Positions 3,796 to 62,830 of a stretch of DNA of 64,000 nt are shown here, in pieces (position 1 is the first letter of the stretch; every line of letters begins with the position of its first letter). Below the pieces are notes generated by a model, which worked only from the letters and a program-made list of their open reading frames with translations, did not search any database and was not told the DNA's origin. Both the position numbers and the translations under genes were made by a program. The stretch comes from Blastocatellia bacterium (lineage in GTDB: Bacteria; Acidobacteriota; Blastocatellia; UBA7656), in contig DATFXM010000194.1 in NCBI GenBank assembly GCA_035315885.1, forward strand, positions 172,825 through 236,824. The letters run 5' to 3'.

Positions 3796-3902
3796 GCCGC
3801 AAAGCGTCGCAAGGAACGCAAAGCGCGGAATCCCTGCGGGCTTTGCGGCTTTGCGTGAGACCCAACTCATGTAGCAACGCAACCCCTACAGGGTTGCGTT
3901 AC
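3796..3902 (+). terminator. GC-rich stem-loops downstream of the GT2 gene. This is terminator-like but has no U-tract.
   Basis: A perfect 10-bp stem aacgcaaccc/gggttgcgtt with a 5-nt loop at 3876-3900. A preceding cgcaaagc...gctttgcg hairpin. Confidence 0.3.
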
Positions 3903-4039: not shown

Positions 4040-6205
4040 ATGGAATCGCAGGCGTTGCAAAACAAGTCAAAGCCTTCTGCACGAATCAGGCTGATATTCG
4101 CCGCCGGATTTGTCGTGCTGAGCACGCTACTGGTCTTTCCGTTTTTTTATTCAAAGACGGAAGTGATCTCCGGCCGTCGCGTGTACAAGATGCTCGGGAC
4201 TCACGATCTGCTGACTCACGTAAAAATGATGCAGCAATTCGAACTCTCGTTGAGCGCCGGTATCATAGAACCGAGGTGGTTTTCCGAAGTCAACAACGGC
4301 TACGGCTCCGCGACTTTCAACTACTACCCAAGACTGTTCTACTACGTGACAACGCTCGTTAATATTCCCTTCCATGACTGGCACACAACTCTGTTGATCC
4401 TGTCGATCGTTTGTCTCGCGGCATCGGGCGGTTCGATGTACTGGATGGCGCGAATGTTTTACAGCCGGCCCGCCAGTGTAATTGCCGCATTGCTCTACGT
4501 GTTGTTGCCGTATCATCTGCTGGACCTGTATTGGAGAGGCGCTCTGACCGAGTATGCGGGGTTCATTCTTCTTCCGCTAATTCTTCGCTTCGCAATAAAG
4601 GTTGGAACAGAACCGCGAACTCTCAATTTTGCGGGGCTCGGTCTTTTTTACGGCATACATCTTATGACTCACATGCCCGTAGCGTTGATGTTCAGCTACG
4701 GCATGGTCTTCTTCGCGATAATCTGGGCTGCGCAGAAACGTGACATCAGAATTCTGTTTCGGATCGGCGCTGGAATGGCTGTCGGAGTGCTCTTGAGCGC
4801 TACCTACTGGCTGCCCGCAGTGCTTGAGACATCGCTCGTATACGAGTGGGCGAGCCTCATGTTTCCTTATCACAGCGTGTACATCACGCCACTTGAAGGC
4901 GCGAACGCTTTCGACACTCTCATCATCCTGACCTTCAAGTACAACCTCGTGCTGGTGATCGTTGCCGCGCTTGCTTTGAAGTACCGCCGCCGTGACGATC
5001 AAGAGCAAGACAAAGGGTTTTCGTGGGATCGAATGTGGGTAATCATGGCGGGATTTGCGCTTTTTATGTGCAACGCGTTGTCGTATGACATCTCGAGACT
5101 CCTGCCGAAAATCCAGGCCGCTGTACCTCCATTTCGCTGGCTTGCCATCGCAGCTCTTTTCAGCGCCCTGCTTGTCGCCGCGGTTGTCGAACGCTGGCGC
5201 GCAGCCGAGTTGCGGTTGTTGGCCCGCGTAGCCCTGGTAGTCATTCTGGCCCTCAACGTCTGGCTTGCGGTATCCAAGTCGCTTCTCTCGTCGCTGGTCA
5301 ACGGACCGATGCCTGCTTCCGATATCTACCTCGACGCCGGATTCATTCCCGCAGGAGCGGCTCAACCTGGAGCGTTGCGCGATTCACCGCGAATCGAGCT
5401 TCAACCGGAGGGCGGCCTTGCCGAAACCACTCGCTGGGATCCAGAAAACCGGGAGATACGACTCAAGACGGATCAGCCCGCTACCGTCCGAATCAAAACC
5501 TACAACTTCCCGGGCTGGAAGGCTTCTATCGATGGCAAACCGACGACAATCTCGAGCGATAACGACGGAGTGCAAACCATCAGCGTCGAACCCGGCACGC
5601 ACGTAATTGACACTGCGTTCAAAAACACTCGGACTCGTACCGCTGCGCAGTTAGTCAGCCTGTTCGGCCTGTCCTCGCTTGTTGGGCTGGCGATATACGG
5701 TCGCCGTCGCGTCGCGGCAGATCAGCAGGAACCTAAGCTCAAGCGCGAAACCGCACACGCGACCGCAGGCGCAATGCGTTTGCTTGGTAATCGCAGAATC
5801 GCGGTGGCCGTCGTCGCCGCGATTGTAGCTGCAGGTGTAGCAATCGCCCTCGCTTTTGCCAGACCGGGTCACGACAAATCAAATAGTGGTTCGAGAGCGC
5901 CGGCGGGCGGCAGCGCGTCGCCTTCGGGATTGCCGGCGGATTCGGATGCTTCGCTCTTCATCCCGAACGCTTCAACTATCTCGGTCGCGGTAGATCCAGA
6001 GTCGCTCGATCAATTAGTGGAATCTCTGGCGCGTCACGACGCGGATAGAATCGATGAGCTCAGTCATTCGGGCAAGGTTCTCGTCGTGGAGAATCGAACC
6101 CGGGTTCGCGTGTTGGAGCGAAGCGCCGGCAAGGTAAAGGTGCGGTTGTCCGAGGGGAGATACCAGTGGGCCGAAGGGTGGGTGCCCGACCCCTGGGTTC
6201 GATGA
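4040..6205 (+). CDS. Large polytopic membrane protein with a C-terminal soluble domain. It is possibly a GT-C-fold (YfhO/ArnT-like) glycosyltransferase.
   Basis: There are more than 10 predicted TM helices across the first ~420 aa. A long Ala-rich helix and a ~120-aa soluble C-terminal domain follow. It sits between GT2 and sugar-modifying genes. The family assignment is uncertain. Confidence 0.6.
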   Translation: MESQALQNKSKPSARIRLIFAAGFVVLSTLLVFPFFYSKTEVISGRRVYKMLGTHDLLTHVKMMQQFELSLSAGIIEPRWFSEVNNGYGSATFNYYPRLFYYVTTLVNIPFHDWHTTLLILSIVCLAASGGSMYWMARMFYSRPASVIAALLYVLLPYHLLDLYWRGALTEYAGFILLPLILRFAIKVGTEPRTLNFAGLGLFYGIHLMTHMPVALMFSYGMVFFAIIWAAQKRDIRILFRIGAGMAVGVLLSATYWLPAVLETSLVYEWASLMFPYHSVYITPLEGANAFDTLIILTFKYNLVLVIVAALALKYRRRDDQEQDKGFSWDRMWVIMAGFALFMCNALSYDISRLLPKIQAAVPPFRWLAIAALFSALLVAAVVERWRAAELRLLARVALVVILALNVWLAVSKSLLSSLVNGPMPASDIYLDAGFIPAGAAQPGALRDSPRIELQPEGGLAETTRWDPENREIRLKTDQPATVRIKTYNFPGWKASIDGKPTTISSDNDGVQTISVEPGTHVIDTAFKNTRTRTAAQLVSLFGLSSLVGLAIYGRRRVAADQQEPKLKRETAHATAGAMRLLGNRRIAVAVVAAIVAAGVAIALAFARPGHDKSNSGSRAPAGGSASPSGLPADSDASLFIPNASTISVAVDPESLDQLVESLARHDADRIDELSHSGKVLVVENRTRVRVLERSAGKVKVRLSEGRYQWAEGWVPDPWVR

Positions 6206-6730: not shown

Positions 6731-7756
6731 ATGATCAACGTTGGAGTAATCGGATACGGCTACTGGGGGCCGAATCTCGTACGCAATTTCATGGAAGCTT
6801 CCGGCTCAACAGTCGCTTACATAAGCGATCGGCGAGCTGAATGCCTGGCTGCAGTGCGACGCCGATACCCCTCGCCGAAAACCACTCTCGACCCTTTTGA
6901 CTTGATCGGCGATTCATCAGTTGATGCGGTCGCAATCGCCACCCCGGTGGCTACGCACTTTGAGCTCGCGCTGAGGGCTTTGAAGGCCGGCAAGCACGTC
7001 CTCGTGGAAAAGCCCCTCGCAGCAACCTCTGAACAGTGCGCAACGTTGATCGAAGAGGCTTCTCGAAAAAATCTGGTGTTGATGGTAGATCATACTTTTG
7101 TCTACACCGGCGCGGTGAGAAAAATCCGCGAGCTGGTTACGAGTCGAGTTCTTGGGGACATCTACTACTATGATTCGGTACGGGTAAATCTCGGGCTCTT
7201 CCAGCACGACGTGAACGTGATTTGGGACCTTGCGGTGCACGATCTTTCGATCCTGGATTTCGTGCTCGATGGCAAGCCGGTAGCGGTATCGGCGACGGCG
7301 ATCAACAACATCGCCGGTCAGCCGGAGAACGTCGCGTATATCACGCTCTTCTTTTCGGGAAACGAAATCGGTCACATTCACGTGAATTGGCTTGCGCCGG
7401 TCAAAGTCCGGCGTACGCTGATCGGCGGGAGTGAGAAAATGATCGTGTACGACGACATCGAGCCCAGCGAGAAACTGAAGATGTACGACAAAGGGATCAG
7501 GATCGAACCTCAGCGCGAAGAGCTGTACGAGCTCTTAGTGAGTTACAGATCGGGCGATATGTGGGCGCCAAAGCTGGACACCACCGAAGCGCTTCGCACC
7601 GAAGCCCTGCATTTCATCGAATGCATCGAACGCGGCAAACGTCCGCTAACGGATGGCGAGTCCGGTCTGCGCATCGTCAGATTGCTCGAAGCCGCTGAAA
7701 AGTCGGCGGCGGGTCGCGGAGCCCTCGTCGAACTCGCGAGGCGATGCGCGTCGTGA
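6731..7756 (+). CDS. Gfo/Idh/MocA-family NAD-dependent UDP-sugar dehydrogenase (WbpB/WlbA-like).
   Basis: N-terminal INVGVIGYGYWGPNLVRNF Rossmann motif. EKPLA motif. C-terminal pattern typical of UDP-GlcNAc(A) 3-dehydrogenases. Confidence 0.75.
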   Translation: MINVGVIGYGYWGPNLVRNFMEASGSTVAYISDRRAECLAAVRRRYPSPKTTLDPFDLIGDSSVDAVAIATPVATHFELALRALKAGKHVLVEKPLAATSEQCATLIEEASRKNLVLMVDHTFVYTGAVRKIRELVTSRVLGDIYYYDSVRVNLGLFQHDVNVIWDLAVHDLSILDFVLDGKPVAVSATAINNIAGQPENVAYITLFFSGNEIGHIHVNWLAPVKVRRTLIGGSEKMIVYDDIEPSEKLKMYDKGIRIEPQREELYELLVSYRSGDMWAPKLDTTEALRTEALHFIECIERGKRPLTDGESGLRIVRLLEAAEKSAAGRGALVELARRCAS

Positions 7757-10762: not shown

Positions 10763-10812
10763 CAGAAGTAGGCAGTATGCATACTGCCTACTGCCTACTG
10801 CCTACCACTTTC
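10763..10812. repeat. Palindromic heptamer element (ggcagta/tactgcc) between convergent genes.
   Basis: The sequence gtaggcagtatgcatactgcctactgcctactgcctacc is a perfect palindrome around gcatac. Confidence 0.8.
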
Positions 10813-30780: not shown

Positions 30781-31692
30781 ATGATCAAGCCCTACGGTTC
30801 CGAGCTAGATGAATTGAGTTCGTGCAGCATCTGCAATTCAACAACCGCGCGCGTACTGTATACGGCGGTTGACCGGCTTAGCAACTCTGGCGAACGCTTT
30901 ACGATTGTGGAGTGCGAGGGCTGCGGCGTTCTGCGCACCGCGCCGGACATGAGTTACGCGGAACTCGCGAGATTTTATCCAGAGGACTACTGGGGCGATT
31001 CCGCTGAACCCTCGGACACTTGGATCCGACGCTCTCAGAGAGAAAAGCTGGAGTTTCTCGGGCGATGCGGACTGACAGGTGGTCGCATTCTGGACGTGGG
31101 CTGCGGAGCGGGGTTCTTTCTCCGAGCGCTGGAGTCAGACAGATGGGAACGATTTGGCGTTGAAACCGGTGATAAAGCGGCAACGATTGCACGCCGTTTC
31201 CTCGGGGATAAGATCGTGCAAGGGACATTCTCTGCCGCGCAGTTTCAACGCGAGTCCTTCGACGTAGTTAGTTTTTGGTCGGCTCTAGAACATACAAACG
31301 AGCCGCGTGAGAACCTCATCTCAGCCGCGGAACTCTTACGGCCGGGAGGGACATTGATAGTGCAGCTACCGAATGCCACCAGCTATCAGGCTCAAGCGTT
31401 CGGAGGCGACTGGTTTTCTCTCGATGCGCCGCGTCATCGCTATCACTATTCTCCGTCTGCGCTTGAGAGGCTGTTGAAAGAAACAGGTTTCTCGGTCTAT
31501 CGAACGAGTTACTTTTCGAGGGCGCACAACGCGCACGCACTACGTCAGAGCTTGAAGAAAAGGCTACTGAGTGCCGGGGCTGGCGCTCGCGTGGTGTTCT
31601 ATTTGAGCATTCCGTTCATTCGGCCGTTTGATTCATTGATGAGCGCCCTTGGCAAAGGCGCTACGATGACGGTAGGAGCGAGGAAGTTCTGA
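30781..31692 (+). CDS. Class I SAM-dependent methyltransferase.
   Basis: ILDVGCGAGFF SAM motif. LRPGGTLIVQ. N-terminal CSICNS...CEGCG zinc-ribbon-like segment. Confidence 0.7.
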   Translation: MIKPYGSELDELSSCSICNSTTARVLYTAVDRLSNSGERFTIVECEGCGVLRTAPDMSYAELARFYPEDYWGDSAEPSDTWIRRSQREKLEFLGRCGLTGGRILDVGCGAGFFLRALESDRWERFGVETGDKAATIARRFLGDKIVQGTFSAAQFQRESFDVVSFWSALEHTNEPRENLISAAELLRPGGTLIVQLPNATSYQAQAFGGDWFSLDAPRHRYHYSPSALERLLKETGFSVYRTSYFSRAHNAHALRQSLKKRLLSAGAGARVVFYLSIPFIRPFDSLMSALGKGATMTVGARKF

Positions 31693-31950
31693 GTTCTGGA
31701 TTAAGTGCTGAGTGCTGAGCGCTGAGTGCTGAGCGCTGAGCGCTGAGTATCAACCCCGAAGGGGTTGCGTCGCCCGGCCCAGGGTTGCCGTCCGCGGCTA
31801 CCCTGGGTAGGACGCCAAATATCTCGCCAACCCCGAAGGGGTTGCGTCGCCCAGCCCAGGGTTGCCGTCCGCGGCTACCCTGGGTAGGACGCCAAATATC
31901 TCGCCAACCCCGAAGGGGTTGGTACTCAGCACTCAGCACTCAGCACTTCC
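31693..31950. repeat. Large composite palindromic element. (ctgagtg/ctgagcg)n and (cactcag)n arms flank two tandem ~77-bp hairpin units.
   Basis: Left arm ctgagtgctgagcgctgagtgctgagcgctgagcgctgag. Two copies of the unit caaccccgaaggggttgcgtcgcc(c/a)gcccagggttgccgtccgcggctaccctgggtaggacgccaaatatctcgc. Right arm ggtactcagcactcagcactcagcac. Confidence 0.9.
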
Positions 31951-32962
31951 ACAACGCCATCACCTCGCGATCGGTGAGCCGTGCCGCAGCTCGTTCAGCC
32001 TTTCGACGCTCTCGCACTTCCGGCAGAAGCCTCAACGCTTTGATCACTCCTCGAACAAACCCAAACTGAAACCTCAACGGTGCCGATAATGTCAGCAGCA
32101 CAACCCAAGCAACGTGACTCGTCAGCATTCTCCAGTCGTGCAGATGAATCCAGTGGTAAAGGAGCCTGTTGCGCTGCTCGATGACTCTCACCTTACGCTG
32201 GTCCAACTTGCGAATCGTCGATGAAATTGAGTGCCGAGCCGTCGATCGGGGTTCGTATAGAACCCGATAGCCGCGCTTCCACGCCTTGTAACTCAGTTCG
32301 ACATCTTCCCAATAGAACGGGTTGAGCAGAGACTCAAAGCCGCCGACCTCCAGAAATTTCTCGCGATCGATCATAGAACTGCCGCCCCCGGCAAACATCG
32401 AGAAGTAATCCCGACCCGGCCCGGTCGACCCCGGCGGGGGCGCCCAACTGTCATGAACCCGAATGAATCCTCGAGAAAAAGATCCCCGCTTACCAATCCC
32501 GCATTCAACCCCTGTTCGCATGTCGATAACTTTACAGTGCGCCGCAAAAATTGAACGGTCGCGAAAATTCTCGACCAGCTTGCCGATCGCATCGCCGGCC
32601 ACTTCGACGTCATTGTTGAGCAACAGAATCAAGCGGTAGCTCGACGCGAGAACTCCGGTATTGCATGCCGCGCCGAAGCCTTCATTTCGATCGCGTACAA
32701 CAACCCGCAACGACGGTGACGCTGGACGCTCACCGACCTCGGCGGCCGCCCTGTTTTCCAACTCAGCAATACTGAATCCCTGTTCCTTCAGCCACCATAC
32801 GCTCTGATCAGTGCTCCCGTCGTCTACAACGATTATCTCAGTTGGGGCCGCCGTCTCTTCCCGGTATTGCTTAGCGGCCTGGAGGACTGAAGGCAGAAAC
32901 TGCTTGAGCAGGTCGATTCCGTTCCAGGTCGGAATGACAATGCTGACTGGCGCGGATGCCAT
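31940..32962 (-). CDS. Family 2 glycosyltransferase.
   Basis: VSIVIPTWNG, IIVVDDGSTD, and a DxD-like motif (YWEDVELSY). Confidence 0.75.
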   Translation of the reverse strand: MASAPVSIVIPTWNGIDLLKQFLPSVLQAAKQYREETAAPTEIIVVDDGSTDQSVWWLKEQGFSIAELENRAAAEVGERPASPSLRVVVRDRNEGFGAACNTGVLASSYRLILLLNNDVEVAGDAIGKLVENFRDRSIFAAHCKVIDMRTGVECGIGKRGSFSRGFIRVHDSWAPPPGSTGPGRDYFSMFAGGGSSMIDREKFLEVGGFESLLNPFYWEDVELSYKAWKRGYRVLYEPRSTARHSISSTIRKLDQRKVRVIEQRNRLLYHWIHLHDWRMLTSHVAWVVLLTLSAPLRFQFGFVRGVIKALRLLPEVRERRKAERAAARLTDREVMALWKC

Positions 32963-37400: not shown

Positions 37401-40400
37401 ATGTCTACCAGGACCCTCACAAATGCCCGTGGAATAGATGAAGCGTTGGCTGCGGGCCGCGCCGCGATGGAGGCGAGCCAGTTCGAAGAGGCAGCCAACC
37501 ACTTCCGCCAGGCGTTGCGCATGGGTCCGCGTCCGGGCGACGAAGAAGCTCTAATCCGCTGCGAGCTGAGCAAAGCTCTAGAAAAGCGCGCGCTGAACCG
37601 CGAACAGCTCGACGCGATAGCGAAATACGAGAAGACAACAGAATTCAGCAGACTTTCCGAGCGCTGGCAGTTGCAGGTGCTGATCCGGCTGGCGAGTGGC
37701 CTGTCGGTCAACAACGACGTTCCACGCTCAATCGCTCTGTTCAATCAAGCCATCAAAATCGCACGCGACCGGCAGGACGACTCGGCCATCGGCGCGTGCT
37801 ATTTCGGTCTGGGCCGCGCATACCGGAACCTCCTCGAAATCAGAATCGCGCGGGACCAATACGTCTCGGCACTCGAACACTATCGGCGAACGGGCGACTG
37901 GCGGAAGCTCGCCGAATCGCATTTGTACATAGGGTATATCACGGCTTACGAAGGGGACTTCCGCGGCGCTCTTCAATCGCTCAAGCAGACTCTGGCGTTG
38001 GTGGGCAATCGCGAAGAGCACGACCTGCTGGGCCGGTGCTATATGTACATGGCGATCGCTTATGACAATCTGGGTTCGACCGACAAGGCGCTCGCGTCGT
38101 GGGACAAATGTCTCAGCCATTTTGAGCGGGCCGGGAATCGCATTCACTATGCGATAAACCAGAACAATCTCGCGGTCAAACTTATCTGGCTGGGAGAATG
38201 GTCGCGCGCTGAAAGCCTCGCCAGGCAGGCGATGGAGGTACTCCGAGACTCGCCAAGCATTGCCCAATACGCTTCGGTAGTCGACACGCTGGCCCGCGTC
38301 TATGTCCTTCAAGGAAAGCTCGACGAAGCCGATCAATTGCTTGCGCACTCCCTGGAAGTTATCAATTCGATCAAGACTGGCGAGTGGGTCGAGATCAGCA
38401 CTCGCATGACCATCGGCCTCAGCTATTTGATGAAGGGTGACCCCGAAAGCGCCAAGCAGCCACTCGGGCGGGCCGTCGACATTTGCCTGCGCGGCAGTGA
38501 TCTGCATTTCGCGTCAGAGGCGCAATTGCTGCTTGCGGATTCCCTTCTCCAAACTGGAGAGGTCGCGCAAGCACGAGAGATTGTCGATTCGGTGCGCAAT
38601 TACCTGAGAGACGCACCCAACATGCTTTCGTGGGGCATGATGATGCGCATGCTTGCGAAGCTGGAGGCTGCTGAAGGCCATCTCGCCGCAGCAATTCAGT
38701 CGCTCGGGCAGAGCAGCTCGATATATACCTTGCGAAGAAATCGATACGCGTGCGCGGTCAATCGAATAGTTTTGGCGGAGCTGCTGGAGCGTCAGGGACG
38801 AATCTCCGAGGCCCTCGACGAGGTGTCGAGCGCGCTGACTACATTTGCCGAGCTCGGCGCGGCTACCGACGAAAGGAATACGCAGACCAGGCTCGATACG
38901 CTCAAGGCGCGCGCCCAGGGTGAACCCGGCGAGGCGCCCGAGCCAAAGATAGTGCTTCGGGCGCCTTCATTTGATTTGGCCTCATCTCTCGTTTCCTCAC
39001 TGGACGGCTTCATAGCTCAACGCCTCGTTCAGGCATCGGTGTCGCGTGACCTGCTGCTTCACGAGCTGGCGGCCATCATCTCCGATCTCTCGCAGAGCCG
39101 CGGAACGATTGTAGCTGAGATCGCCGGTGAGGATCAGACAGCCTTTCACAGGCTCAATCTCAAGATCGCTGCCGGCGTAGGCCTGTCGGATCGCGAAGAG
39201 GCCGAGTGCCTTGCGATGCTGGCGGAGTTGCCGGTTGCGCACTATCACACCCGTTTCGTTTATCAATTGAACGACAACCAGCAGTCTCGGTTTTTGCTCT
39301 ACATTGTTGAACCTCACGCCGAGCGATTCCTCGAAGGCAAGGTCAACATTCAACCGCTTCTCGATATCGGGGAGCTTGGCCTCGAAGCGTACGTGCTGAA
39401 AAACAAGAGCAGGCGGACCCAGGTGTTCGATCCTGCGCGATTGCTGGCCCAGGTTGAGCTGCCGGGTTTCATATGCGCGAGCCGAGCAATGAGCAACGTG
39501 CTGGAACAGATCAATAAGATCCGTTCGTCGGACGTAACGGTGCTCATCACCGGCGAATCGGGGACCGGCAAGGAACTGGTCGCTCGAGCGATTCACGCGG
39601 GCAGTTCCCGGAAGATGAACACGTTCCTGCCGTTCAATTGTTCCGCGGCGCCGCACGAAATGATCGAGAGCCAGCTTTTTGGTTTCAGAAAAGGCGCATT
39701 CACCGGTGCGGTCGCCAACAACGAAGGCATAATCCGGGCTGCCGATCGCGGGACTCTGTTTCTGGATGAAATCGGAGACCTGCCGTTAAAGCTTCAGCCA
39801 AAACTGCTGCGTTTTCTTCAAGAGGGCGAAGTACATCCACTCGGCGAGAGCCAGCCGATCAGAGTCAACGTGCGGGTGCTTGCAGCGACCAACTCAGATT
39901 TGGAACGCGCGGTGGCCGAAGGCCGCTTTCGCGAGGATCTCTTTCACAGGCTTAACGTTATTCGCATCCAGGTACCACCGCTTCGGCAGCGCCGCGAAGA
40001 GATACCGGCTTTGATCAATTACTACTTGAGTCAGTATCTTCAAGACGCTGCGAAGACCGACATAAAGCTTTCTGAGGAAGCAGTGGATCTGCTTGTGGTC
40101 TATGACTGGCCGGGGAACGTTCGGCAGTTGTGCAATGAGGTACGGCGAATTGTGGCTTACGCCGACTCCGGAAGCGTGGTCACCCCGGACGGACTGTCGG
40201 AAGAGATTGTTCGAGCGAGCCGTGAGATCGACACGACGCCGACCCCGGTTCAAAAGATAGGGACACCGGTTGCGTCATCGACCGACTCGACGCTGTCGGA
40301 AGCGGTGGAGGAGCTGGAGCGCCGGATGATTCAGGACGCGCTGAAGCGATCCAGTGGCAACATCGCACGAGCTGCCAAGGAGCTGGGCCTGTCTCGAAAG

Positions 40401-40442
40401 GGTCTGTACCTGAAGATGGACCGTCTGAACTTCGACATTTGA
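37401..40442 (+). CDS. Sigma-54-dependent transcriptional activator (bEBP). Long TPR-like and GAF-like N-terminal region. No receiver domain.
   Basis: AAA+ sigma-54 activation domain: Walker A VLITGESGTGKE, GAFTGA loop (FGFRKGAFTGA), and EGEVHPLGESQPIRVNVRVLAATN. C-terminal Fis-type HTH (NIARAAKELGLSRKGLYLKM). The N-terminal ~620 aa are helical and TPR-like. Confidence 0.85.
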   Translation: MSTRTLTNARGIDEALAAGRAAMEASQFEEAANHFRQALRMGPRPGDEEALIRCELSKALEKRALNREQLDAIAKYEKTTEFSRLSERWQLQVLIRLASGLSVNNDVPRSIALFNQAIKIARDRQDDSAIGACYFGLGRAYRNLLEIRIARDQYVSALEHYRRTGDWRKLAESHLYIGYITAYEGDFRGALQSLKQTLALVGNREEHDLLGRCYMYMAIAYDNLGSTDKALASWDKCLSHFERAGNRIHYAINQNNLAVKLIWLGEWSRAESLARQAMEVLRDSPSIAQYASVVDTLARVYVLQGKLDEADQLLAHSLEVINSIKTGEWVEISTRMTIGLSYLMKGDPESAKQPLGRAVDICLRGSDLHFASEAQLLLADSLLQTGEVAQAREIVDSVRNYLRDAPNMLSWGMMMRMLAKLEAAEGHLAAAIQSLGQSSSIYTLRRNRYACAVNRIVLAELLERQGRISEALDEVSSALTTFAELGAATDERNTQTRLDTLKARAQGEPGEAPEPKIVLRAPSFDLASSLVSSLDGFIAQRLVQASVSRDLLLHELAAIISDLSQSRGTIVAEIAGEDQTAFHRLNLKIAAGVGLSDREEAECLAMLAELPVAHYHTRFVYQLNDNQQSRFLLYIVEPHAERFLEGKVNIQPLLDIGELGLEAYVLKNKSRRTQVFDPARLLAQVELPGFICASRAMSNVLEQINKIRSSDVTVLITGESGTGKELVARAIHAGSSRKMNTFLPFNCSAAPHEMIESQLFGFRKGAFTGAVANNEGIIRAADRGTLFLDEIGDLPLKLQPKLLRFLQEGEVHPLGESQPIRVNVRVLAATNSDLERAVAEGRFREDLFHRLNVIRIQVPPLRQRREEIPALINYYLSQYLQDAAKTDIKLSEEAVDLLVVYDWPGNVRQLCNEVRRIVAYADSGSVVTPDGLSEEIVRASREIDTTPTPVQKIGTPVASSTDSTLSEAVEELERRMIQDALKRSSGNIARAAKELGLSRKGLYLKMDRLNFDI

Positions 40443-40735
40443 GTGCTGAGTGCTGAGTCTTGAGTGCTAACCCCGAGGGGGTTGCGTCCACCAGCCCAAG
40501 GTTGCCGTCCGCGGTTACCCTGGGATCCCCGAACACCTAGATCCAACCCGGAAGGGGTTGCGTCGTTGAGCACACGGTTGCCGTCCACGTCTACCCTGGG
40601 AACCCGAACACCTAGATCCAGCCCCGATGGGTTTGCGTCGTTGAGCCCACGGTGCCGTCCACGTCAACCCTGGGACGCAATCCCATCGCGGTTGTACCCC
40701 ACCACTCAGAACTCAGAACTCAGAACTTCCGAGTG
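40443..40735. repeat. Large composite palindromic element. (ctgagtg)n left arm, three diverged ~75-bp hairpin units, (actcaga)n right arm.
   Basis: tgagtgctgagtgctgagtcttgagtgc. Then aaccccgagggggttgcgtcc...ccaaggttgccgtccgcggttaccctggg... repeated three times with divergence. Then cactcagaactcagaactcagaacttcc. Confidence 0.9.
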
Positions 40736-40751
40736 TGTACCTGCTTTACAG

Positions 40752-40840
40752 GTGTGAACTCACTACACATACCAGCTTAAGTTATTGAATTTCAAACAAG
40801 AGACTCGACTCGCGCTCGGAGATGTGTAGCTAGTTCACAC
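40752..40840. promoter_or_regulatory. 19-bp inverted repeat pair. It is a candidate enhancer (UAS) for the adjacent bEBP, or MITE-like termini.
   Basis: gtgtgaactcactacacat at 40752-40770. atgtgtagctagttcacac at 40822-40840, whose reverse complement is gtgtgaactagctacacat. The pair lies ~90-180 bp upstream of the candidate -24/-12 promoter. Confidence 0.4.
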
Positions 40841-40928
40841 TTCGCTCCGCCGGTTTCGTTTGGGCATTAGCCTGCCAACTTGTTGTATTCACGAGGTCGC
40901 AACTCCAACAAAGTGGTTGCGTCGTGCA

Positions 40929-40944
40929 GGCACGGACCTTGCAC
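40929..40944 (+). promoter_or_regulatory. Candidate sigma-54 (-24/-12) promoter.
   Basis: aGGCACGgaccTTGCA. GG and GC have the exact consensus spacing of TGGCACG-N4-TTGCA. About 75 nt downstream sits an SD-preceded small ORF. Confidence 0.45.
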
Positions 40945-41027
40945 AAGTCATAGCGAAGGCAGGGCTGAGGCGATCAGGTGAGGGGTTGCCGAGGCCAGGC
41001 CGTTAAGCCCTGAAAGGAGAGACAACC

Positions 41028-41090
41028 ATGTGCAACTCAAGCTTCCACCTGAACGAAGGACGAATTCTTTGCGATGTCCAAGCGCAATAA
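41028..41090 (+). CDS. Small ORF (20 aa) with a canonical SD. It may or may not be coding.
   Basis: aaAGGAGAgacaaccATG. Peptide MCNSSFHLNEGRILCDVQAQ. Third-position GC is low for this genome. Confidence 0.25.
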   Translation: MCNSSFHLNEGRILCDVQAQ

Positions 41091-41181
41091 GAGGTAAGAA
41101 ATCGACCTTTTGTTCAGCCACCGACAGAGGTGCGAAATTAGTTAATAGTCACCTCGTCGTCAGCCAAAGGAGAAACAAAGA

Positions 41182-41265
41182 ATGGTTGCGAATGGACTCC
41201 AGGCTAAGATCGGAGTGATCTTTGATGAGGTCGGGATCGAAGAAGTAGTCGCTCCCCGTTTTTAG
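41182..41265 (+). CDS. Small ORF (27 aa) with a canonical SD. It may or may not be coding.
   Basis: aAGGAGAaacaaagaATG. Peptide MVANGLQAKIGVIFDEVGIEEVVAPRF. It is followed by the 9-bp hairpin ccgcaggcg/cgcctgcgg. Confidence 0.25.
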   Translation: MVANGLQAKIGVIFDEVGIEEVVAPRF

Positions 41266-41879
41266 GACCTCTGAAGCATCAGCACGAGTTCGTAGGCACC
41301 GCAGGCGTGGTGAGGGACCCGCCTGCGGCGGCCTCGTTCTCTGCAATGGCCGCACGAATTGAAAGAAAGACGAGCGCTGGGCTCGACTGTCCTGCATTTG
41401 TCGAGCTCAGCCCCCTAATCAAAGAATCGGCCTCGCGAGACACTCCCGACGGCGCCCAAGACAAAATCGCCCCGGTCGCCGAATTCGAACACCGGGCCAC
41501 AACTCGAATCTAGCGCGAATCGGCACCGAGTCAGACGTGTGCTCGAAATCACGTCCGGTGGTTCGCCTTAACAACAGCGAACACCCGTGCCGTCGTGGCG
41601 CATCGATGCGGCTCGGCAAAAATATTCACCGACTATTCAGTACGTACTGATGCGATATAAGTCGCACTCGGCGCTGGGCTGTTTGAGTGCCCGAGGTTTG
41701 AATCTGCGCCCTTCTTTCACGTTGTCATCGGGCGTCGCCACGAAAAGTTTGCGAGTCGGCCGCTCGCAACACCACGATGAAGTCGGGGCACAATGATTGC
41801 GAAAGATGCGCCGTGAGCTTTCAGCCGGTGCGGCTCGAGCAACTCTCCTGCCGAGGGCACCGCACCGCTAAGGCTCACG

Positions 41880-42545
41880 AACTTGTTGAGTGCTGAGTGC
41901 TGAGTGCTGAGTGCTGAGTGCTGAGTGCTGAGTGCTGAGTGCTGAGTGCTGAGTGCCAAGCCCGACGGAATTGCGGAAGGGCCGATCAAACCAGGTTTCC
42001 GGACGCAACCCTTTCAGGGTTGCAGAGATTTGACCAACTTGACCCAGGGTAGCCGCAGACGGCAACCCTGGGCTGGACGACGCAACCCCTTCGGGGTTCC
42101 AGAGATTTGACCAACTTGACCCAGGGTAGCCGCGGACGGCAACCCTGGGCTGGACGACGCAACCCCTTCGGGGTTCCAGAGATTTGACCAACTTGACCCA
42201 GGGTAGCCGCAGACGGCAACCCTGGGCTGGACGACGCAACCCCTTCGGGGTTGGCGCTCAGAACTCAGCATTGATAAAGCCGGCACTCACCATTTGATAA
42301 GTTCAGCACTCAGCACTCAGCACTCAGCACTCACGCTCAGCACTCACACTCGCACTCAGCACTCAGCACTCACACTCATACTCAGCGCTCACACTCACAC
42401 TCGCACTCAGCACTCAGCACTCACGCTCAACACTCGCACTCAGCACTCACGCTCAGCACTCGCACTCAGCACTCAGCACTCAGCACTCAGAACTCAGAAC
42501 TCAGCACTCAGAACTCAGAACTCAGAACTCCCCTCCTTCCCCAGA
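41880..42545. repeat. Largest composite element in the window, ~660 bp. (gagtgct)n array, then at least three inverted-orientation ~77-bp hairpin units, then a ~250-bp (cactcag)-variant heptamer microsatellite.
   Basis: About 10 copies of gagtgct at 41886-41955. The unit (gac)ccagggtagccgc(a/g)gacggcaaccctgggctggacgacgcaaccccttcggggttccagagatttgaccaactt is repeated at least three times at 41960-42250. It is the reverse complement of the 31750 unit. Heptamers cactcag/cactcac/cgctcag/aactcag run from 42300 to 42540. Confidence 0.9.
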
Positions 42546-42580: not shown

Positions 42581-43243
42581 ATGGCCGATATAGAAGCCAA
42601 CGAAACACTCTGTGATTGCGGCGCAAGACTCACGCCTAATCTGCGTTACTGCCTCTCTTGTTACCGCCCAGTTAAAAATCGCGATCAGATGCAGGCGCAC
42701 TTCAACGCTGCCCGAGCCGTGGACACTACCAGACGCTTCGACCCAACCACCGTTTTCCTGCCCGAAGTGCACGAAGCTCTCGCAAAACGCGCGAGACGAC
42801 GCAAACGGCTCCTCGTCGCAGGACTGATCGCGGTGTTGTTGATAGTCGCTGGTCTCTTTGCGTTCGATTCGATCCATCGCCGGCGCCAGTTGGCGGAGCG
42901 CGCACAGTCCCGGGAGAGAATGGCGCAGCGAGAACTCGCGATGTTGGCCGACGGTCTCGAGAGGTTCAAGGCTGACGTAGGCCGCTATCCGACCGAACAG
43001 GAAGGACTCGCGTCGCTCACTCGCAGGCCCTCAAAAAACTCTTCGGTCGATGTAGCGCAGGCGGGCGACTGGATGGGCCCTTACATAGAAGGCGTCTTTG
43101 AAGTCGACCCTTGGGGTAACGACTACGTCTATCGCCTGGTGGACAACGGCGCAGCTTTCGAACTGATCTCATACGGCCCTCAAGGCGACTCCGGCGCGGG
43201 TAAAGTGTTGCGCGCGGCGCCACCTCGTGAAATATTGCGTTGA
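42581..43243 (+). CDS. Zinc-ribbon plus single-TM protein with a C-terminal type II secretion GspG pseudopilin-like domain. It lacks a prepilin leader.
   Basis: N-terminal CDCG...CLSCY zinc ribbon. TM helix LLVAGLIAVLLIVAGLFAF. C-terminal GRYPTEQEGLASL...WMGPYIEG..DPWGNDYVYRL...FELISYGPQGDSGAG closely matches the GspG globular domain (RYPT.EGL...W.GPY...DPWG..Y.Y......F.L.S.G.DG). Confidence 0.7.
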   Translation: MADIEANETLCDCGARLTPNLRYCLSCYRPVKNRDQMQAHFNAARAVDTTRRFDPTTVFLPEVHEALAKRARRRKRLLVAGLIAVLLIVAGLFAFDSIHRRRQLAERAQSRERMAQRELAMLADGLERFKADVGRYPTEQEGLASLTRRPSKNSSVDVAQAGDWMGPYIEGVFEVDPWGNDYVYRLVDNGAAFELISYGPQGDSGAGKVLRAAPPREILR

Positions 43244-46443: not shown

Positions 46444-49272
46444 ATGTCACAAGATGAGCAACACAGAAAACTAACTCAGCTCGCGAAGGACGCTGAGGAT
46501 CGCGGAGGGCAACTGCAGAACTACCCGCCTCCTGATAAATGGGACGACTGGGTTGAGTTGGATGCGCGCGCATGGCCGCGACGAGTCGAGCGTCACTATC
46601 AACTGATCCCGACTGTGTGCTTCAACTGCGAGTCGGCTTGCGGCCTGCTGGCCTACGTGGACAAACAGACCGGAGAGATCCGCAAGTTCGAAGGCAACCC
46701 TCTCCACCCCGGGTCGCGCGGGCGCAATTGCGCCAAGGGGCCGGCGACAATCAACCAGATCGATGATCCCGAACGAATCCTGTATCCGCTGAAGCGGAAA
46801 GGTAAGCGTGGCGAAGGCGAATGGGAGCGCACAACCTGGGACGAGGTTCTGGACACTTTCTCCGCACGAATACGGAAGGCGCTGATCGATGGGCGTCGCG
46901 ACGAAGTCGTCTACCACGTCGGACGCCCGGGTCACGACGGGTACATCGATCGAGTTCTTCAGGCGTGGGGAGTTGACGGTCACAACTCTCACACGAATAT
47001 CTGCTCTTCGTCCGCGCGTCTCGGTTACGCGCTTTGGCAAGGAGCGGACCGGCCCTCGCCCGATTATTCAAACGCCAGGTTTATTCTTCTGCTCAGCTCG
47101 CACCTGGAAACGGGGCACTACTTCAATCCGCATGCTCAACGAATAATCGAAGGCAAAATGAGCGGCGCCAAAATCGCGGTGATCGATCCGCGTCTTTCGA
47201 ACACCGCCTCCTCAGCGAACTATTGGTTGTCACCGTATCCCGGCACCGAAGCTGCGTTGCTGCTTTCGATGGCCTCAGTCATCCTGAATGAGAATCTCTT
47301 CGACCGCCAGTTCGTGCGACGCTGGGTGAACTGGGAAGAATTCATGCGCTTTGAGCGGCCGCACCTCCCGTCTTCATTTGAATCTTTCATTGACGAGCTC
47401 AGGCAAGTGTATTCAAGCTTCACGCCGGAGTTTGCTGCTGAGGAATGCGGCGTGGAAGCATCCACGATTGTCGAGGTAGCGCACGAGATCGCTCGAGCGG
47501 GTTCCGCGTTTGCCTCGCACGTATGGCGCAGCGCGGCAAGCGGAAACCTCGGAGGTTGGCAGGTTGCACGCGCGTTGATGTTCCTTAACGTCCTGACTGG
47601 AAGCGTCGGAACTCGCGGGGGTGTTTGTCCTAACACGTGGAACAAATTCGTGGCGACTCCGTTTTCAAAGCCGGAGCCACAAAAAGTATGGAGTGAGCTC
47701 CTGTGGCCCCGCGAGTATCCCCTCTCGCATCACGAGCTGAGTTTCCTGCTTCCCCATTTATTGAAAGACGGGCGAGGCCATCTGTCGGCGTACTTCACTC
47801 GCGTTTACAACCCGGTTTGGACCAATCCTGATGGATTGAGTTGGATTGAGGTGTTGCGCGATGAGTCACTGATTGAGCTTCATGCAGCGCTGACGCCGGT
47901 ATGGAGCGAGACCGCGTGGTTTGCCGACTATGTCTTGCCGATGGGCCTGGGCGCTGAGCGGCATGACTTGATGAGCCAGGAGACGCACTCTGCTCAATGG
48001 ATTTCGTTTAGACAGCCGGTCAAACGAGTGGTCGCCGAGAGATCCGGCGCCCACGTGGACTACACGTATCAGGCCAACCCCGGCGAGGTTTGGGAAGAGG
48101 ACGAGTTCTGGATCGAGTTGTCGTGGAGGATCGATCCCGACGGAAGTCTCGGCGTACGCCGACATTTCGAGTCCCCGTACCGGCCCGGCGAAAAGGTGTC
48201 GATCGAAGAGTACTATCGGTGGATCTTCGAAAACAGCATACCCGGCCTGAAAGAACAGGCAGCGAGCATGGGCCAGGAGCCGCTCGACTACATGCGACGG
48301 ATCGGCTCGTTCTCGGTAAGGAAGAATGTCTACGATCTGCACGAGGCTGCGGTCTCCGAGGCACAGCTCGAAAACGCACGGATCGACGATCAAACCGGAA
48401 GGATAATCAAGCCCGGGGTGGGTGCGATGAGCGCCGTCGGCTTGATGATCGACGGAGAGCCGCGCGTCGGGTTCAACACGCCCTCGCGGAAGCTCGAGTT
48501 GTACTCCAGGACGATGGCAGAATGGAAGTGGCCTGAGCACAGCCTGCCGGGTTACATGCGCAGTCACATACACTGGAGAGACCTGGAGCGCGGCTCGGGG
48601 GAATACATTCTGGTGCCTACTTTTCGGCTACCTACGCTGATTCACACTCGCTCGGGCAACGCGAAGTGGTTGTATGAAATCTCGCATACGAATCCGTTAT
48701 GGGTTAACCCCGGTGACGCGAAGGTGCTCGGCTTCGAGAATGGGGCGCTGGTCAGAGTGAACACGGAGATCGGATACTTCGTGATTCGGGCCTGGGTGAC
48801 TGAAGGAATCAGGCCTGGCGTAGTTGCGTGTTCGCACCATCTCGGCAGGTGGCGTCTTAAGCGTGAGGAAGGCGCGGACCGCTGGGCCTCTGCCCTGGTA
48901 GATCTGGAAGAACTCGGTGAAGGCCGGTGGAAGCTGAGACGCGTTGAAGGGATCGCGCCGTTCGAAAGCGCGGACCCCGATTCGGAAAGAATCTTCTGGC
49001 GCGAAGCAGGCGTACATCAGAATCTGGCTTTCCCGGTGCATCCGGACCCGGTGAGCGGAATGCACTGCTGGCATCAGCGAGTGCGACTGGAAAGCGCGAA
49101 AGACGGCGATCAGTACGGGGACGTCGTGGTGGACACGAAGCTGTCTCGAGATGTCTATCGCAAGTGGTTGGAGATGACGCGGCCCGCTCCCGGACCCGAG
49201 GGTCTGAGGCGACCGCGATGGTTCTCACGTCCGGTCAGGCCCGCCGATGAGGTGTACGTCATGACGGTTTAG
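46444..49272 (+). CDS. Molybdopterin (bis-MGD) oxidoreductase catalytic subunit of the Psr/Phs/Ttr/Arr-like clade. No twin-arginine signal.
   Basis: N-terminal 4Fe-4S motif CFNCESACGLL...NCAKG. Its length and the PGVVACSHHLGRW region are typical of Mo-bisPGD enzymes. The N-terminus MSQDEQHRKLTQLAKD lacks an RR motif. Confidence 0.75.
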   Translation: MSQDEQHRKLTQLAKDAEDRGGQLQNYPPPDKWDDWVELDARAWPRRVERHYQLIPTVCFNCESACGLLAYVDKQTGEIRKFEGNPLHPGSRGRNCAKGPATINQIDDPERILYPLKRKGKRGEGEWERTTWDEVLDTFSARIRKALIDGRRDEVVYHVGRPGHDGYIDRVLQAWGVDGHNSHTNICSSSARLGYALWQGADRPSPDYSNARFILLLSSHLETGHYFNPHAQRIIEGKMSGAKIAVIDPRLSNTASSANYWLSPYPGTEAALLLSMASVILNENLFDRQFVRRWVNWEEFMRFERPHLPSSFESFIDELRQVYSSFTPEFAAEECGVEASTIVEVAHEIARAGSAFASHVWRSAASGNLGGWQVARALMFLNVLTGSVGTRGGVCPNTWNKFVATPFSKPEPQKVWSELLWPREYPLSHHELSFLLPHLLKDGRGHLSAYFTRVYNPVWTNPDGLSWIEVLRDESLIELHAALTPVWSETAWFADYVLPMGLGAERHDLMSQETHSAQWISFRQPVKRVVAERSGAHVDYTYQANPGEVWEEDEFWIELSWRIDPDGSLGVRRHFESPYRPGEKVSIEEYYRWIFENSIPGLKEQAASMGQEPLDYMRRIGSFSVRKNVYDLHEAAVSEAQLENARIDDQTGRIIKPGVGAMSAVGLMIDGEPRVGFNTPSRKLELYSRTMAEWKWPEHSLPGYMRSHIHWRDLERGSGEYILVPTFRLPTLIHTRSGNAKWLYEISHTNPLWVNPGDAKVLGFENGALVRVNTEIGYFVIRAWVTEGIRPGVVACSHHLGRWRLKREEGADRWASALVDLEELGEGRWKLRRVEGIAPFESADPDSERIFWREAGVHQNLAFPVHPDPVSGMHCWHQRVRLESAKDGDQYGDVVVDTKLSRDVYRKWLEMTRPAPGPEGLRRPRWFSRPVRPADEVYVMTV

Positions 49273-49455
49273 AGTCTTGGGTTTAGGGTTTAGAGTTTTG
49301 GGTTTAGTGTTTCGGGATTAGTGTTTCGGGGTCCGGAGATTTTGACGAGGAAGAGTTCTGTTATCGGCTGCTGCCTTCAGTCGCCAAAGACAACCAGAGA
49401 CCCGAAACCAGAAACTAGAAACCCCGAAACCCTAAACCCGAAACCTAATTTAGGT
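49273..49455. repeat. Palindromic heptamer element (ggtttag/ggtttcg versus cgaaacc/ctaaacc).
   Basis: gggtttagggtttagagttttgggtttagtgtttcgggattagtgtttcgggg ... gacccgaaaccagaaactagaaaccccgaaaccctaaacccgaaacc. Confidence 0.8.
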
Positions 49456-52079: not shown

Positions 52080-52275
52080 AAATCGTGAATAGTGAATAGT
52101 AAATGGTTTCTTGGCCCGGCTTCTGGGTTTCTGGTTCCTGGTTCCTGGTTCGAGGAATTGCGACTCTGCGATGGTCGGGAGTCGTTTGCCTAAGTCCTGC
52201 TTGCTCGGATGACAAGCATGCCCGCTAAGGAACAGCTGTTTCAACCAGAAACCCGAAACCAGAAACCCTAAACCC
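52080..52275. repeat. Palindromic heptamer element (ggtttct/ggttcct versus agaaacc/ctaaacc) in a divergent promoter region.
   Basis: ggtttcttggcccggcttctgggtttctggttcctggttcctggttcgagg ... caaccagaaacccgaaaccagaaaccctaaaccctgaaccctaaacc. Confidence 0.8.
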
Positions 52276-52360
52276 TGAACCCTAAACCGTTCCGAATAAC
52301 CCTTACCCCTTGCCTGACGTTGCGACCACCAATAGAATCTCCTTTGAGCATGGAGATGTC

Positions 52361-55724: not shown

Positions 55725-55995
55725 TTTTAGTAAGCGAACTGGCGAAGGGACGAATCGGCGACGCGGAGACGAGAGACGAAGTGACGCGGAGAGGAGGGAC
55801 GGGGTGAGGAGGGATGCGGTGACGCGGTGAGGAGAGACGCCGTGACGTGACGCGTCCGTTGGTCGCCCCTTCGCACTTTCGCCCATTGCCCCTTCTCTCC
55901 CCGTCCGTCCCTCCTCTCCGCGTCTCCGCGTCTCTCCTCTCCGAGTCGCCCTTCTCCCCTTCTCCCTTCGCCCATTCGCTCCCCGTCCGTAGTCG
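55725..55995. repeat. Oligopurine/oligopyrimidine imperfect palindrome.
   Basis: gacgcggagacgagagacgaagtgacgcggagaggagggacggggtgaggaggg ... ccttctctccccgtccgtccctcctctccgcgtctccgcgtctctcctctcc. Confidence 0.8.
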
Positions 55996-62499: not shown

Positions 62500-62830
62500 G
62501 GTATGGAGCCCGTCAAACATGGCGGTATTTTTTGGGGTGAGGAGATAAGGCGAATTGGCGAAGGGGCGGTGGCGTGATGCGGAGACGGGGAGAGGAGGGA
62601 CGGGGGAAGGAGGGAATGGGCGAAGGGGCGACCCGCACGGTTCAGCTGACACGGTTGCCCATTCTCTCTTCGCCCATTCGCGCCTTCGCCCATTCGCCCA
62701 TTCCCTCCTCTCCGCTCCCTCCTCCCCGCGTCCCCGCGTCGCCCCTTCGCTTCTCTTCCGCTCCGCTTGTGTCCTTCTCTACGCTACTGCATACTCGCTT
62801 CAGCATCTTCAATACGGCCCCTGGAGAAAA
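62500..62830. repeat. Oligopurine/oligopyrimidine imperfect palindrome.
   Basis: ggcgaaggggcggtggcgtgatgcggagacggggagaggagggacgggggaaggaggg ... cccattccctcctctccgctccctcctccccgcgtccccgcgtcgccccttcgc. Confidence 0.8.

Follow-up and report, generated by a model that had tools for sequence, protein, structure and literature searches.

Organization of the hairpin arrays

The stretch of DNA analysed here, 64,000 nucleotides of a Blastocatellia genome (contig DATFXM010000194.1; hereafter the window), carries at three intergenic loci arrays of a composite repeat unit, in which a small hairpin, termed S, is followed by a larger hairpin, termed L. A covariance model of S and L finds eight full S-L units of ~77 bp, distributed over arrays A (31751-31921, plus strand), B (40467-40695, plus strand) and C (42002-42254, minus strand). 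Together with the related loci described below, they probably represent a mobile-DNA family of soil Acidobacteriota that resembles repetitive extragenic palindromic (REP) and REPIN sequences, rather than a dedicated regulatory RNA.

A preliminary description of this DNA, made from the sequence letters alone, had reported a modular hairpin unit used in both orientations at three places inside heptamer palindromes, with two copies at 31750-31903, three diverged copies at 40470-40700 and three or more reverse-complement copies at 41960-42250. All of these copies were recovered by the covariance model and by Tandem Repeats Finder, and chance alone would produce none. The model places the unit starts at 31750 and 31827 (plus strand), at 40467, 40543 and 40618 (plus strand) and at 42041, 42118 and 42195 (minus strand). 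It also detects S hairpins that end an array or stand alone, at 31904-31924, 41989-42023 (minus strand), 40644-40695 (minus strand) and 3872-3897. Tandem Repeats Finder reports period-77 arrays at 31751-31921 (2.2 copies, 98% matches), at 40469-40675 (2.8 copies, 84% matches) and, in opposite orientation, at 42002-42252 (3.3 copies, 97% matches). The window contains seven occurrences of the 24-nt L core and, with up to three mismatches allowed, 12 of the small hairpin plus GCGTC; shuffled sequences contain neither. The individual features are listed here, with scores on the covariance model R1 introduced below and with their sources in brackets.

31704-31748, plus strand: left heptamer array of array A, AGTGCTG/AGCGCTG, 6.4 copies (Tandem Repeats Finder, sequence, Pfam)
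31751-31771, plus strand: S hairpin of array A (C-AACCCC-GAA-GGGGTT-G, 31751-31767) with its CGTC tag (31768-31771) (sequence, model, fold)
31778-31807, plus strand: first copy of L in array A, CCCAGGGTTGCCG-TC-CGCGGCTACCCTGGG, 13 bp with a T·T mismatch (sequence, model, fold)
31827-31886, plus strand: second S-connector-L unit of array A, R1 score 84 bits (covariance model)
31905-31921, plus strand: terminal S hairpin of array A, without CGTC tag, touching the right heptamer array (sequence, model)
31924-31947, plus strand: right heptamer array of array A, ACTCAGC, 3.4 copies, complementary to the left one (Tandem Repeats Finder)
40440-40468, plus strand: left heptamer array of array B, TGAGTGC, 4.1 copies (Tandem Repeats Finder)
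40467-40676, plus strand: three S-L units of array B, 40467-40526, 40543-40602 and 40618-40676, with 71, 52 and 42 bits (model, fold)
40674-40693, minus strand: diverged S hairpin of array B in inverted orientation, GACGC-AATCCCATCGCGGTT (sequence, model)
40704-40727, plus strand: right heptamer array of array B, ACTCAGA, 3.4 copies (Tandem Repeats Finder)
41887-41956, plus strand: left heptamer array of array C, TGAGTGC, 10 perfect copies (Tandem Repeats Finder)
41957-42023, minus strand: spacer-like segment and inner S hairpin of array C (AACCCTGAAAGGGTT-GCGTC, 42002-42021) (sequence, model)
42041-42254, minus strand: three S-L units of array C, 42041-42100, 42118-42177 and 42195-42254, with 82-84 bits and identical linkers (Tandem Repeats Finder, model)
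42258-42530, plus strand: right heptamer array of array C, TCAGCAC, ~34 copies, long and degenerate (Tandem Repeats Finder)
3872-3897, minus strand: lone S-type hairpin AACGCAACCCCTACAGGGTTGCGTT, outside any array (sequence, model)

Each of the three arrays is enclosed by inverted heptamer arrays (TGAGTGC ... GCACTCA), as had been proposed. Array A with its flanks fills the entire gap (31693-31950) separating a methyltransferase gene (30781-31692, plus strand) from a convergent family 2 glycosyltransferase gene (31940-32962, minus strand); its left heptamers start right 3' of the methyltransferase stop codon, and its right heptamers overlap that of the glycosyltransferase gene, which was identified by Pfam. 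The left heptamers of array B overlap the stop codon of a sigma-54 activator gene (37401-40442, plus strand), and the right heptamers of array C end ~50 nt 5' of a gene for a type II secretion protein G-like protein (42581-43243, plus strand; Pfam). Every array in the window opens and closes with an S hairpin, in the order S-L-S-L-S, and copies within arrays A and C are 97-98% homogeneous. The linkers of ~20 nt are identical inside each locus and unrelated from locus to locus, which argues that the arrays expanded locally. In array C, the segment at 41957-42023 matches the central S2/spacer region of doublets from related loci.

Folding of the units and decay of array B

In the orientation of array A, S reads C-AACCCC-GAA-GGGGTT-G and is followed by CGTC. 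A connector of 7 nt, nnCCAGC, leads to L, which has the form CCCAGGGT-T-GCCG / loop / CGGC-T-ACCCTGGG, with 13 bp and a conserved T·T mismatch. As the preliminary description had it, a small hairpin lies beside a longer one: units of arrays A and C are predicted to fold into these two hairpins in single-stranded DNA, with -24.2 and -22.5 kcal/mol and z-scores of -4.3 and -5.6, respectively. Folded in its entirety, the segment 31693-31950 reaches -90 kcal/mol (z = -12.9), and its heptamer arms pair with each other.

Array B behaves differently. Its model scores drop along the array from 71 over 52 to 42 bits, its first two units fold no better than shuffled sequences (z = -1.0 and +1.0), its third unit (40618-40695) reaches z = -2.9, and L is missing from the predicted fold of units 2 and 3. 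Array B is an old, decaying copy rather than one in which changes are compensated.

Two details of the earlier model of the unit need revision. It had enclosed the longer hairpin in a clamp of GCGTC and GACGC; the GCGTC 3' of S is conserved family-wide, but a GACGC to pair with it is restricted to array A and the final unit of array B, and is absent at 42 kb and from the family consensus. Furthermore, the pair of sequences quoted as compensatory, agccccgatgggttt versus aaccccgagggggtt, differs by a 1-nt deletion and a G·T wobble, not by a double change.

The family beyond the window

A metagenome scan anchored on the S-L junction yielded at least 120 contigs, 116 of which are true members; all numbers given for metagenome loci (116 loci, 130 clusters, 224 units) refer to the matches listed. 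We aligned 125 distinct units (alignments A1 and A2) to build R1, which detected 224 strong units over all loci, 198 of them distinct. All matched contigs come from soil-type samples. The family is thus present on at least 116 soil-metagenome contigs, many of them terminating in the repeat, and also in a Blastocatellia metagenome-assembled genome (MAG). The latter (L002) was the one genuine case among four matches in a scan of GTDB species-representative genomes with the L core, a set that does not include the genome of the window; its S hairpin, AACCGC...GCGGTT, carries a C-G to G-C swap. The other three matches were discarded as coding coincidence: they fall into stretches encoding E-G-C-R-P-R-L-P-W in DNA_alkylation/HEAT proteins, at 4126-4149 (L001), 6928-6951 (L003) and 782-805 (L004), the genes concerned being from Parabacteroides, Prolixibacteraceae and Chloroflexota. 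For L004, Pfam gives DNA_alkylation and HEAT, and such coding stretches contaminate pattern searches. Part of the window recurs almost unchanged in soil metagenome JGI 3300010359 and in run SRR5262249, and the sample with such a recurrence (L005) has further copies of the repeat on contigs L034, L051, L089 and L109. The closest named relatives of the MutL protein encoded in the window, 65-68% identical, come from MAGs of Blastocatellia and Acidobacteriota, so that the DNA belongs to uncultured Blastocatellia. Viral contigs gave no match to the family and hence no support for a phage origin.

In most loci the repeat, which is short, imperfect, palindromic, extragenic and, by counts across contigs, multicopy, takes the form of an inverted doublet, [S1-L-S2]> <[S2-L-S1], with a spacer of ~30-40 nt between the halves. 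Across the 130 clusters there are 58 junctions of a plus with a following minus unit and none of the reverse kind; the largest arrays comprise eight units. Each of the 125 aligned units has GGTTG-CGTC or GGTTG-TGTC after S. The search pattern itself required GYGTC, but the tag is also found on partner units that were not targeted and on S2 copies. In the doublets, these tagged ends face one another. The stem of S measures 6-7 bp, with AA/TT in its outer positions, and encloses a loop of 3 nt; the tail is not clearly CCA.

Of 66 elements placed by a crude call of open reading frames (ORFs), 43 lie between co-directional, 17 between convergent and 6 between divergent genes, and this bias against the divergent context is typical of REP-like repeats. 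The 144 flanking ORFs fall into 206 different Pfam families, so that there is no conserved functional neighbour. A riboswitch reading was dropped for the same want of a gene association, a CRISPR reading for want of unique spacers and an attC reading for want of cassettes.

Near-identical strains differ by half a doublet plus ~130 nt: L014, L058, L118 and L124 carry this segment, while L019, L023 and L044 lack it, and the breakpoint falls within the S2 loop. The long allele (L014, ~1640-1790; likewise in the other three) holds a second palindromic element, GGTAGCGACCGGATCC ... ~85 nt ... GGATCCGGTCGCTACC, which adjoins the S-L doublet and, with its GTAG/CTAC ends, may represent a further family of repeats. 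In one sub-family with S of the CCGC type, an additional conserved segment, GGAASCTCTGATTAAGTCTCTT, lies directly outside (5' of) S1 (L020, L026, L031, L038, L066, L079, L083, L085, L096, L123 and L125); the mobile unit may be longer there.

Covariation in the hairpins

On alignment A1, standard pairs make up 97.1% of the cells, a share that falls to 27-57% once the 3' partners are shifted along. At the fifth pair of S (columns 7 and 13), CG and GC occur in 60 units each, with a few UA and AU, and one pair of L (columns 33 and 61) is GC in 115 and AU in 7. On alignment A4, which includes partner units outside the constraint of the search pattern, 6 of the 18 pairs show changes on both sides. 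Variants of L in two loci, CCAGCG/CGCTGG in L035 and CCCAACGTTGG/CCTACGTTGGG (CCCAACG/CGTTGGG) in L132, retain both the pairing and the T·T mismatch. Hairpins S and L are thus under selection, and covariation, seen across the 198 distinct units, maintains both. The selection on structure that the preliminary description had claimed is borne out in this way; the covariation it had invoked is real at the level of the family, but not in the example quoted from the window.

A Y1 transposase gene between the inverted repeats

Among the families of the flanking ORFs, Y1_Tnp (PF01797) is the second most frequent, with five members. After a tblastn search, the 116 loci hold seven intact Y1 genes, one pseudogene (L082) and one remnant (L104), and in 8 of these 116 loci, all selected by the repeat, the Y1 gene is bracketed by inverted repeat ends. 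Wherever the contig covers both flanks, plus units stand to the left and minus units to the right of the gene, in numbers of four and three (L048), two and four (L126), one and three (L098) and one and two (L046). Directly beside the gene stand S hairpins, whose CGTC side points towards it. In L126, the S and L sequences are identical to those of array C in the window.

The association also holds in the reverse direction. Homologues of the L126 protein form 2275 clusters at E <= 1e-10; four, picked by protein similarity alone, led to eight contigs (JGI, ENA and NCBI), including one from a Terriglobia MAG and one from a Pirellulaceae MAG. In all four cases R1 places an S-L unit in plus orientation upstream of the Y1 gene, and both ends of the gene adjoin an S hairpin. 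Downstream, three of the four have an S-L unit in minus orientation, whereas in the fourth (L134, from the Pirellulaceae MAG) an inverted S is all that is present. These loci lack tnpB. Since inverted flanks are common to doublets and Y1 loci, the doublets can be understood as the two ends of a gene-containing unit in which a spacer has replaced the gene. Across the family, the apex of L varies in length, with extensions that remain complementary; some units beside the Y1 gene of L126 (125-215 and 945-1010) have an L variant with an apical insertion of ~30 nt, CAGGGTTGCAGAACAAACCCAGTGTACTGGTATGCGGCTACCTGA, which indicates that the apex tolerates large insertions.

The Y1 proteins have 150-151 residues and are 55-64% identical among themselves (alignment A7). 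They contain the motifs DHVH (HuH), FQWQ and YIENQ[EK]EHH and a conserved C-terminal tail, FQDELRSLL..H..EWDERYLWD. Their scores are 55-78 bits on Pfam Y1_Tnp and 41-53 bits, below the cut-off of 55, on NCBIfam transpos_IS200. The best matches in the PDB are the TnpA proteins of IS608 and ISDra2 (E ~1e-6); the structure of E. coli TnpA-REP is not among the PDB matches at E<=1. Set against the description of TnpAY1 proteins in Table 1 of PMC6006769, the proteins agree with subclass 1.2 in every signature given there. A regular expression for RAYT-type motifs (HUH plus Y..NP) had found nothing in these loci, which is misleading, since the Y1 motif here is Y...Q. An identity with the acidobacterial TIRYTs was ruled out, as the two are different proteins on comparison.

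Other repeats of the window

Many intergenic heptamer arrays of the window lack S-L units. Several are palindromic (e.g. GGTTTAG... / ...AACCCGA) with unrelated centres; such arrays lie at 1308-1461, 49266-49445 and 52126-52288, and others at 10778, 14001, 30243, 34037, 46342, 54930 and 58274. In the window's lineage, heptamer palindromes thus form a feature of their own that extends genome-wide. In the family at large, a strong period-7 signal is found at 13 of 44 outer boundaries of elements with S of the CCCC type, as opposed to 0 of 111 of the CCGC type. Being confined to the window's sub-lineage and existing without S-L, the heptamers represent a context or insertion target outside the family.

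The lone S hairpin at 3872-3897 is intergenic, upstream of a gene at 4040, and has neither L nor heptamer flanks. The ~1.1 kb separating arrays B and C (40730-41870) contain no ORF of at least 100 residues and only chance-level Rfam matches in E-value mode; a 19-nt inverted repeat, gtgtgaactcactacacat / atgtgtagctagttcacac, lies there at 40744-40763 / 40820-40840. G+C-rich tandem repeats with periods of 8, 15 and 23 nt occur at 55783-55977, 62584-62734 and 63340-63424 (e.g. GGAGATGA x8 and GACGCGGTGAGGAGG); some form complementary pairs that flank genes, and they are unrelated to the S-L family.

Comparison with known systems

The REP/REPIN-RAYT systems, or 'REPtrons', reportedly go back to work by Nunvar in 2010, Bertels and Rainey in 2011 and Ton-Hoang in 2012. 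They are the best-studied case of a domesticated transposase that maintains a population of short repeats inside bacterial genomes. To our knowledge, they have been characterised mostly in Proteobacteria, and always with class 2 (RAYT) enzymes. With these systems, the family shares short, imperfect, extragenic palindromes in many copies, which form inverted doublets and clusters, the bracketing of a Y1/HUH gene by inverted repeats (in the related loci) and the depletion between divergent genes. It differs in that the enzyme is not of the class 2 TnpA-REP/RAYT type and has the tyrosine motif YIENQxEHH in place of Y..NP, in that two unlike hairpins, instead of a single REP, make up the repeat, and in the head-to-tail tandem arrays of the window. 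Moreover, the hairpin foot lacks the conserved unpaired GTAG of REPs; GTAG is conserved only inside the stem of L, on the complementary strand around the mismatch, in the context CCCAGG-GTAG-CCG or, as a variant, CCCAAC-GTAG-GCC. The system works like a REPtron, yet with neither a class 2 RAYT enzyme nor a GTAG at the hairpin foot it is not filed within the RAYT family.

The architecture of REP/RAYT, REPIN and REPtron systems has been described together with that of CGTC-tagged REPs (PMC3733652). The latter (Di Nocera, De Gregorio & Rocco 2013, PMC3733652) have a stem of 8-9 bp whose first two pairs are A·T, a loop of 4-5 nt and a 3-nt CCA tail, and were reported from Proteobacteria, Chlorobi, Bacteroidetes, Spirochaetes and Thermotogae, with no dedicated transposase. 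S resembles them in its outer A·T pairs, in having a short loop, in the unpaired 3' CGTC, often TGTC, and in the facing of tagged ends in dimers (their 'HH' arrangement); unlike them, it has a stem of 6-7 bp and a loop of 3 nt, is always coupled to L, and resides in Acidobacteriota, where the repeats flank a Y1 gene.

TnpAY1 proteins of subclass 1.2 are described as ~148 residues long, with DH[IV]H, WQ, Y---Q--HH (YIKNQKEHH) and a specific C-terminal tail (Quentin et al. 2018, PMC6006769). Table 1 of that paper lists them with 'no' in the REP column and mostly from Cyanobacteria and Bacteroidetes, and they are regarded as low-copy and without properties of an insertion sequence (IS). The loci found here depart from this description in their inverted composite hairpin flanks, in their dispersed copies and in their occurrence in Acidobacteriota, and possibly Planctomycetota. 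With IS200/IS605 elements such as IS608 and ISDra2, they share a Y1 HUH transposase with the catalytic motif YIENQ, imperfect hairpins with a conserved stem irregularity beside the gene and the lack of a visible terminal duplication. In IS200/IS605, however, the subterminal hairpins have the same orientation (PMC6006769), tnpB is often present and many tnpA copies are near-identical, whereas here the composite ends are inverted, tnpB is missing, gene-less copies predominate and the Y1 copies are only 55-64% identical.

TIRtrons with their TIRYTs and class 3 TnpAY1 proteins come from the same phyla, Acidobacteria and Planctomycetes (PMC3733652, PMC6006769). Their Y1 genes are likewise flanked by inverted repeats, long and partly self-complementary ones, that also form dispersed families, with ~600 copies in Solibacter usitatus as an example (PMC3733652, PMC6006769). 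Their proteins differ from ours, however, with an MPDHVH...WQ arrangement in the Koribacter TIRYTs and NHVH and YV..EQ in class 3, as do their repeats, which have a CnGA foot or a GGGGWSAS motif where here there are S-CGTC and L. As intergenic mosaics assembled from modules, the number of which varies from element to element, they recall the BIMEs of E. coli, the BOX elements of pneumococcus and the cyanobacterial STRR sequences, and the flanks in the window recall the tandem intergenic heptamers of the latter. The REPs of BIMEs alternate in orientation, unlike the head-to-tail arrays here, and there is no sequence relationship to any of the three.

Proposed mechanism and alternatives

The ancestral arrangement of the family would have been [S1-L-S2]> Y1-transposase gene <[S2-L-S1], built from modules of S with its 3' CGTC/TGTC tag, the connector nnCCAGC, the 13-bp L, a variable linker and a further S. 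If it works as IS608 TnpA and E. coli TnpA-REP do, the HUH/Y1 enzyme of ~150 residues would bind the hairpins in single-stranded DNA, with the irregularity in the L stem and the CGTC tag as candidate features for recognition and cleavage, and would cut and rejoin the strand, causing the repeats to spread. The dispersed gene-less doublets, with their spacer of ~30-40 nt, would be non-autonomous derivatives, comparable to REPINs or to miniature inverted-repeat transposable elements (MITEs), and mobilised in trans. On this analogy we infer both mobility and recognition of substrate by enzyme, and we lean towards the S-L composite hairpin being the cognate DNA substrate of TnpAY1 subclass 1.2. For mobilisation, the presence/absence polymorphism between strains, with its breakpoint in an S loop, is indirect evidence. 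The loci in the window would be half-elements of one orientation, amplified as tandem duplications by slippage or unequal exchange between direct S repeats, in a lineage where S-L elements appear always to sit at the centre of TGAGTGC-type heptamer palindromes. An effect on the host, for example mRNA 3'-end stabilisation as reported for REPs, is possible. The preliminary description had offered a protein-recognised DNA cruciform as one explanation. Protein-recognised DNA is indeed closest to the evidence, given that the modules bracket a Y1/HUH gene in related loci; the recognised form is, by the same analogy, more likely a hairpin in single-stranded DNA than a cruciform.

Several points weigh against a REP/REPIN-like family. 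There is no Y1 gene within the 64 kb of the window, so for this genome the link runs via related contigs, and the placement of L134 in the Pirellulaceae relies on MAG binning. With 19-24 bits on NCBIfam REP_Tyr_transpos, where the cut-off is 80, the Y1 protein is not a canonical RAYT, and judging from its sequence it is closer to IS200 TnpA. Head-to-tail tandem arrays as in the window are unusual for classical REPs. Finally, the search pattern prescribed one arm of each hairpin (3' in S, 5' in L), limiting the variation visible there, some loci represent one site sampled in several metagenomes, and the ORF calls behind the gene contexts are crude.

Alternatively, the Y1 gene and its flanks might simply form an active IS of the IS200 family, with the doublets as its MITEs, in other words a selfish and recently mobile element and not a domesticated, REP/RAYT-like one. 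The kinship of the protein to IS200/IS608 TnpA, the pseudogene and the remnant, the differing gene contexts of the Y1 loci and the indel polymorphism between strains would all fit. We consider this unlikely, for the ends of IS200/IS605 elements are same-orientation subterminal hairpins and not inverted composite repeats (PMC6006769), no tnpB lies beside the gene, and the signatures are those of a subclass described as low-copy and without IS properties (PMC6006769). In addition, gene-less units are much more numerous than genes (224 units to eight genes in the loci), and the divergence of the Y1 copies implies that there was no recent burst.

It is also conceivable that the units function as structured RNA, either as a stabiliser or processing signal in 3' untranslated regions or as a small RNA, with a secondary association to the transposase. 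Stable, covarying hairpins, C-UUCG-G-like loops on one strand, the start of arrays A and B at or over stop codons and the excess of co-directional and convergent gene pairs would be expected of such an RNA, and REPs do act in mRNA (PMC3733652). However, no Rfam 15 family matches the window at gathering thresholds, and E-value mode, applied to the three loci, returned chance matches only, such as RNaseP-T with 25 bits (gathering score 60) and mir-584. Mismatches of the G·T and A·C types are balanced in the stems, 32 versus 24 overall and 7 versus 12 in unconstrained units, and so uninformative for the choice of strand; arrays of a single orientation run with and against the flanking genes in 5 and 7 cases, which is no preference, and array C precedes the next gene in the opposite orientation. 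A terminator scan found no hairpin with a T-run at any of the three loci. Together with the decay of array B, where L is no longer formed, the balanced mismatches, the gene-independent orientation and the lack of terminators argue against a strand-specific RNA, and the near-invariant stem sequence of L suggests sequence-specific recognition, not structure alone. A structured RNA is accordingly quite improbable; the riboregulator that the preliminary description had considered is not supported, and within the window the units are ordinary repeat DNA.

Least probable is that the units are bound by a protein of the host (nucleoid, gyrase or replication-related) or arise as a side product of the heptamer palindromes, with no mobility and a fortuitous transposase: the extreme conservation of L and the embedding of all elements of the window's lineage in TGAGTGC-type palindromes would suit this, but the transposase association holds in both directions, heptamer flanks are missing from the larger CCGC sub-family, and palindromes without S-L exist in the window.

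A REP/REPIN-like mobile family therefore remains the reading we prefer. In kind, the repeat thus falls among known families, an outcome that the preliminary description had named as speaking against its proposal, although a full-text literature search found no published description of this family or sequence. The moderately novel part lies outside the window, where the repeat is a candidate partner for an orphan Y1 subclass. If S-L is indeed the cognate substrate of that subclass, an independent REPtron/REPIN-like system would unite IS200-like enzyme chemistry with an inverted architecture as in REPs and with gene-less copies amplified on a massive scale; its range would extend over Acidobacteriota, possibly also Planctomycetota, and in one Blastocatellia lineage S-L would insert specifically at the centres of heptamer palindromes. 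For metagenomics, these repeats matter in that they break assemblies, many contigs ending inside them, and are open to confusion with structured RNAs; the covariance model can be used for masking or for a census. For the biology of the family, REP architecture would here have formed around a different, IS200-like Y1 enzyme in an abundant, little-cultured soil phylum. The orphan subclass 1.2 would gain a candidate substrate with a defined hairpin, mismatch and tag, and the system would offer an intermediate linking IS200 elements and REPtrons.

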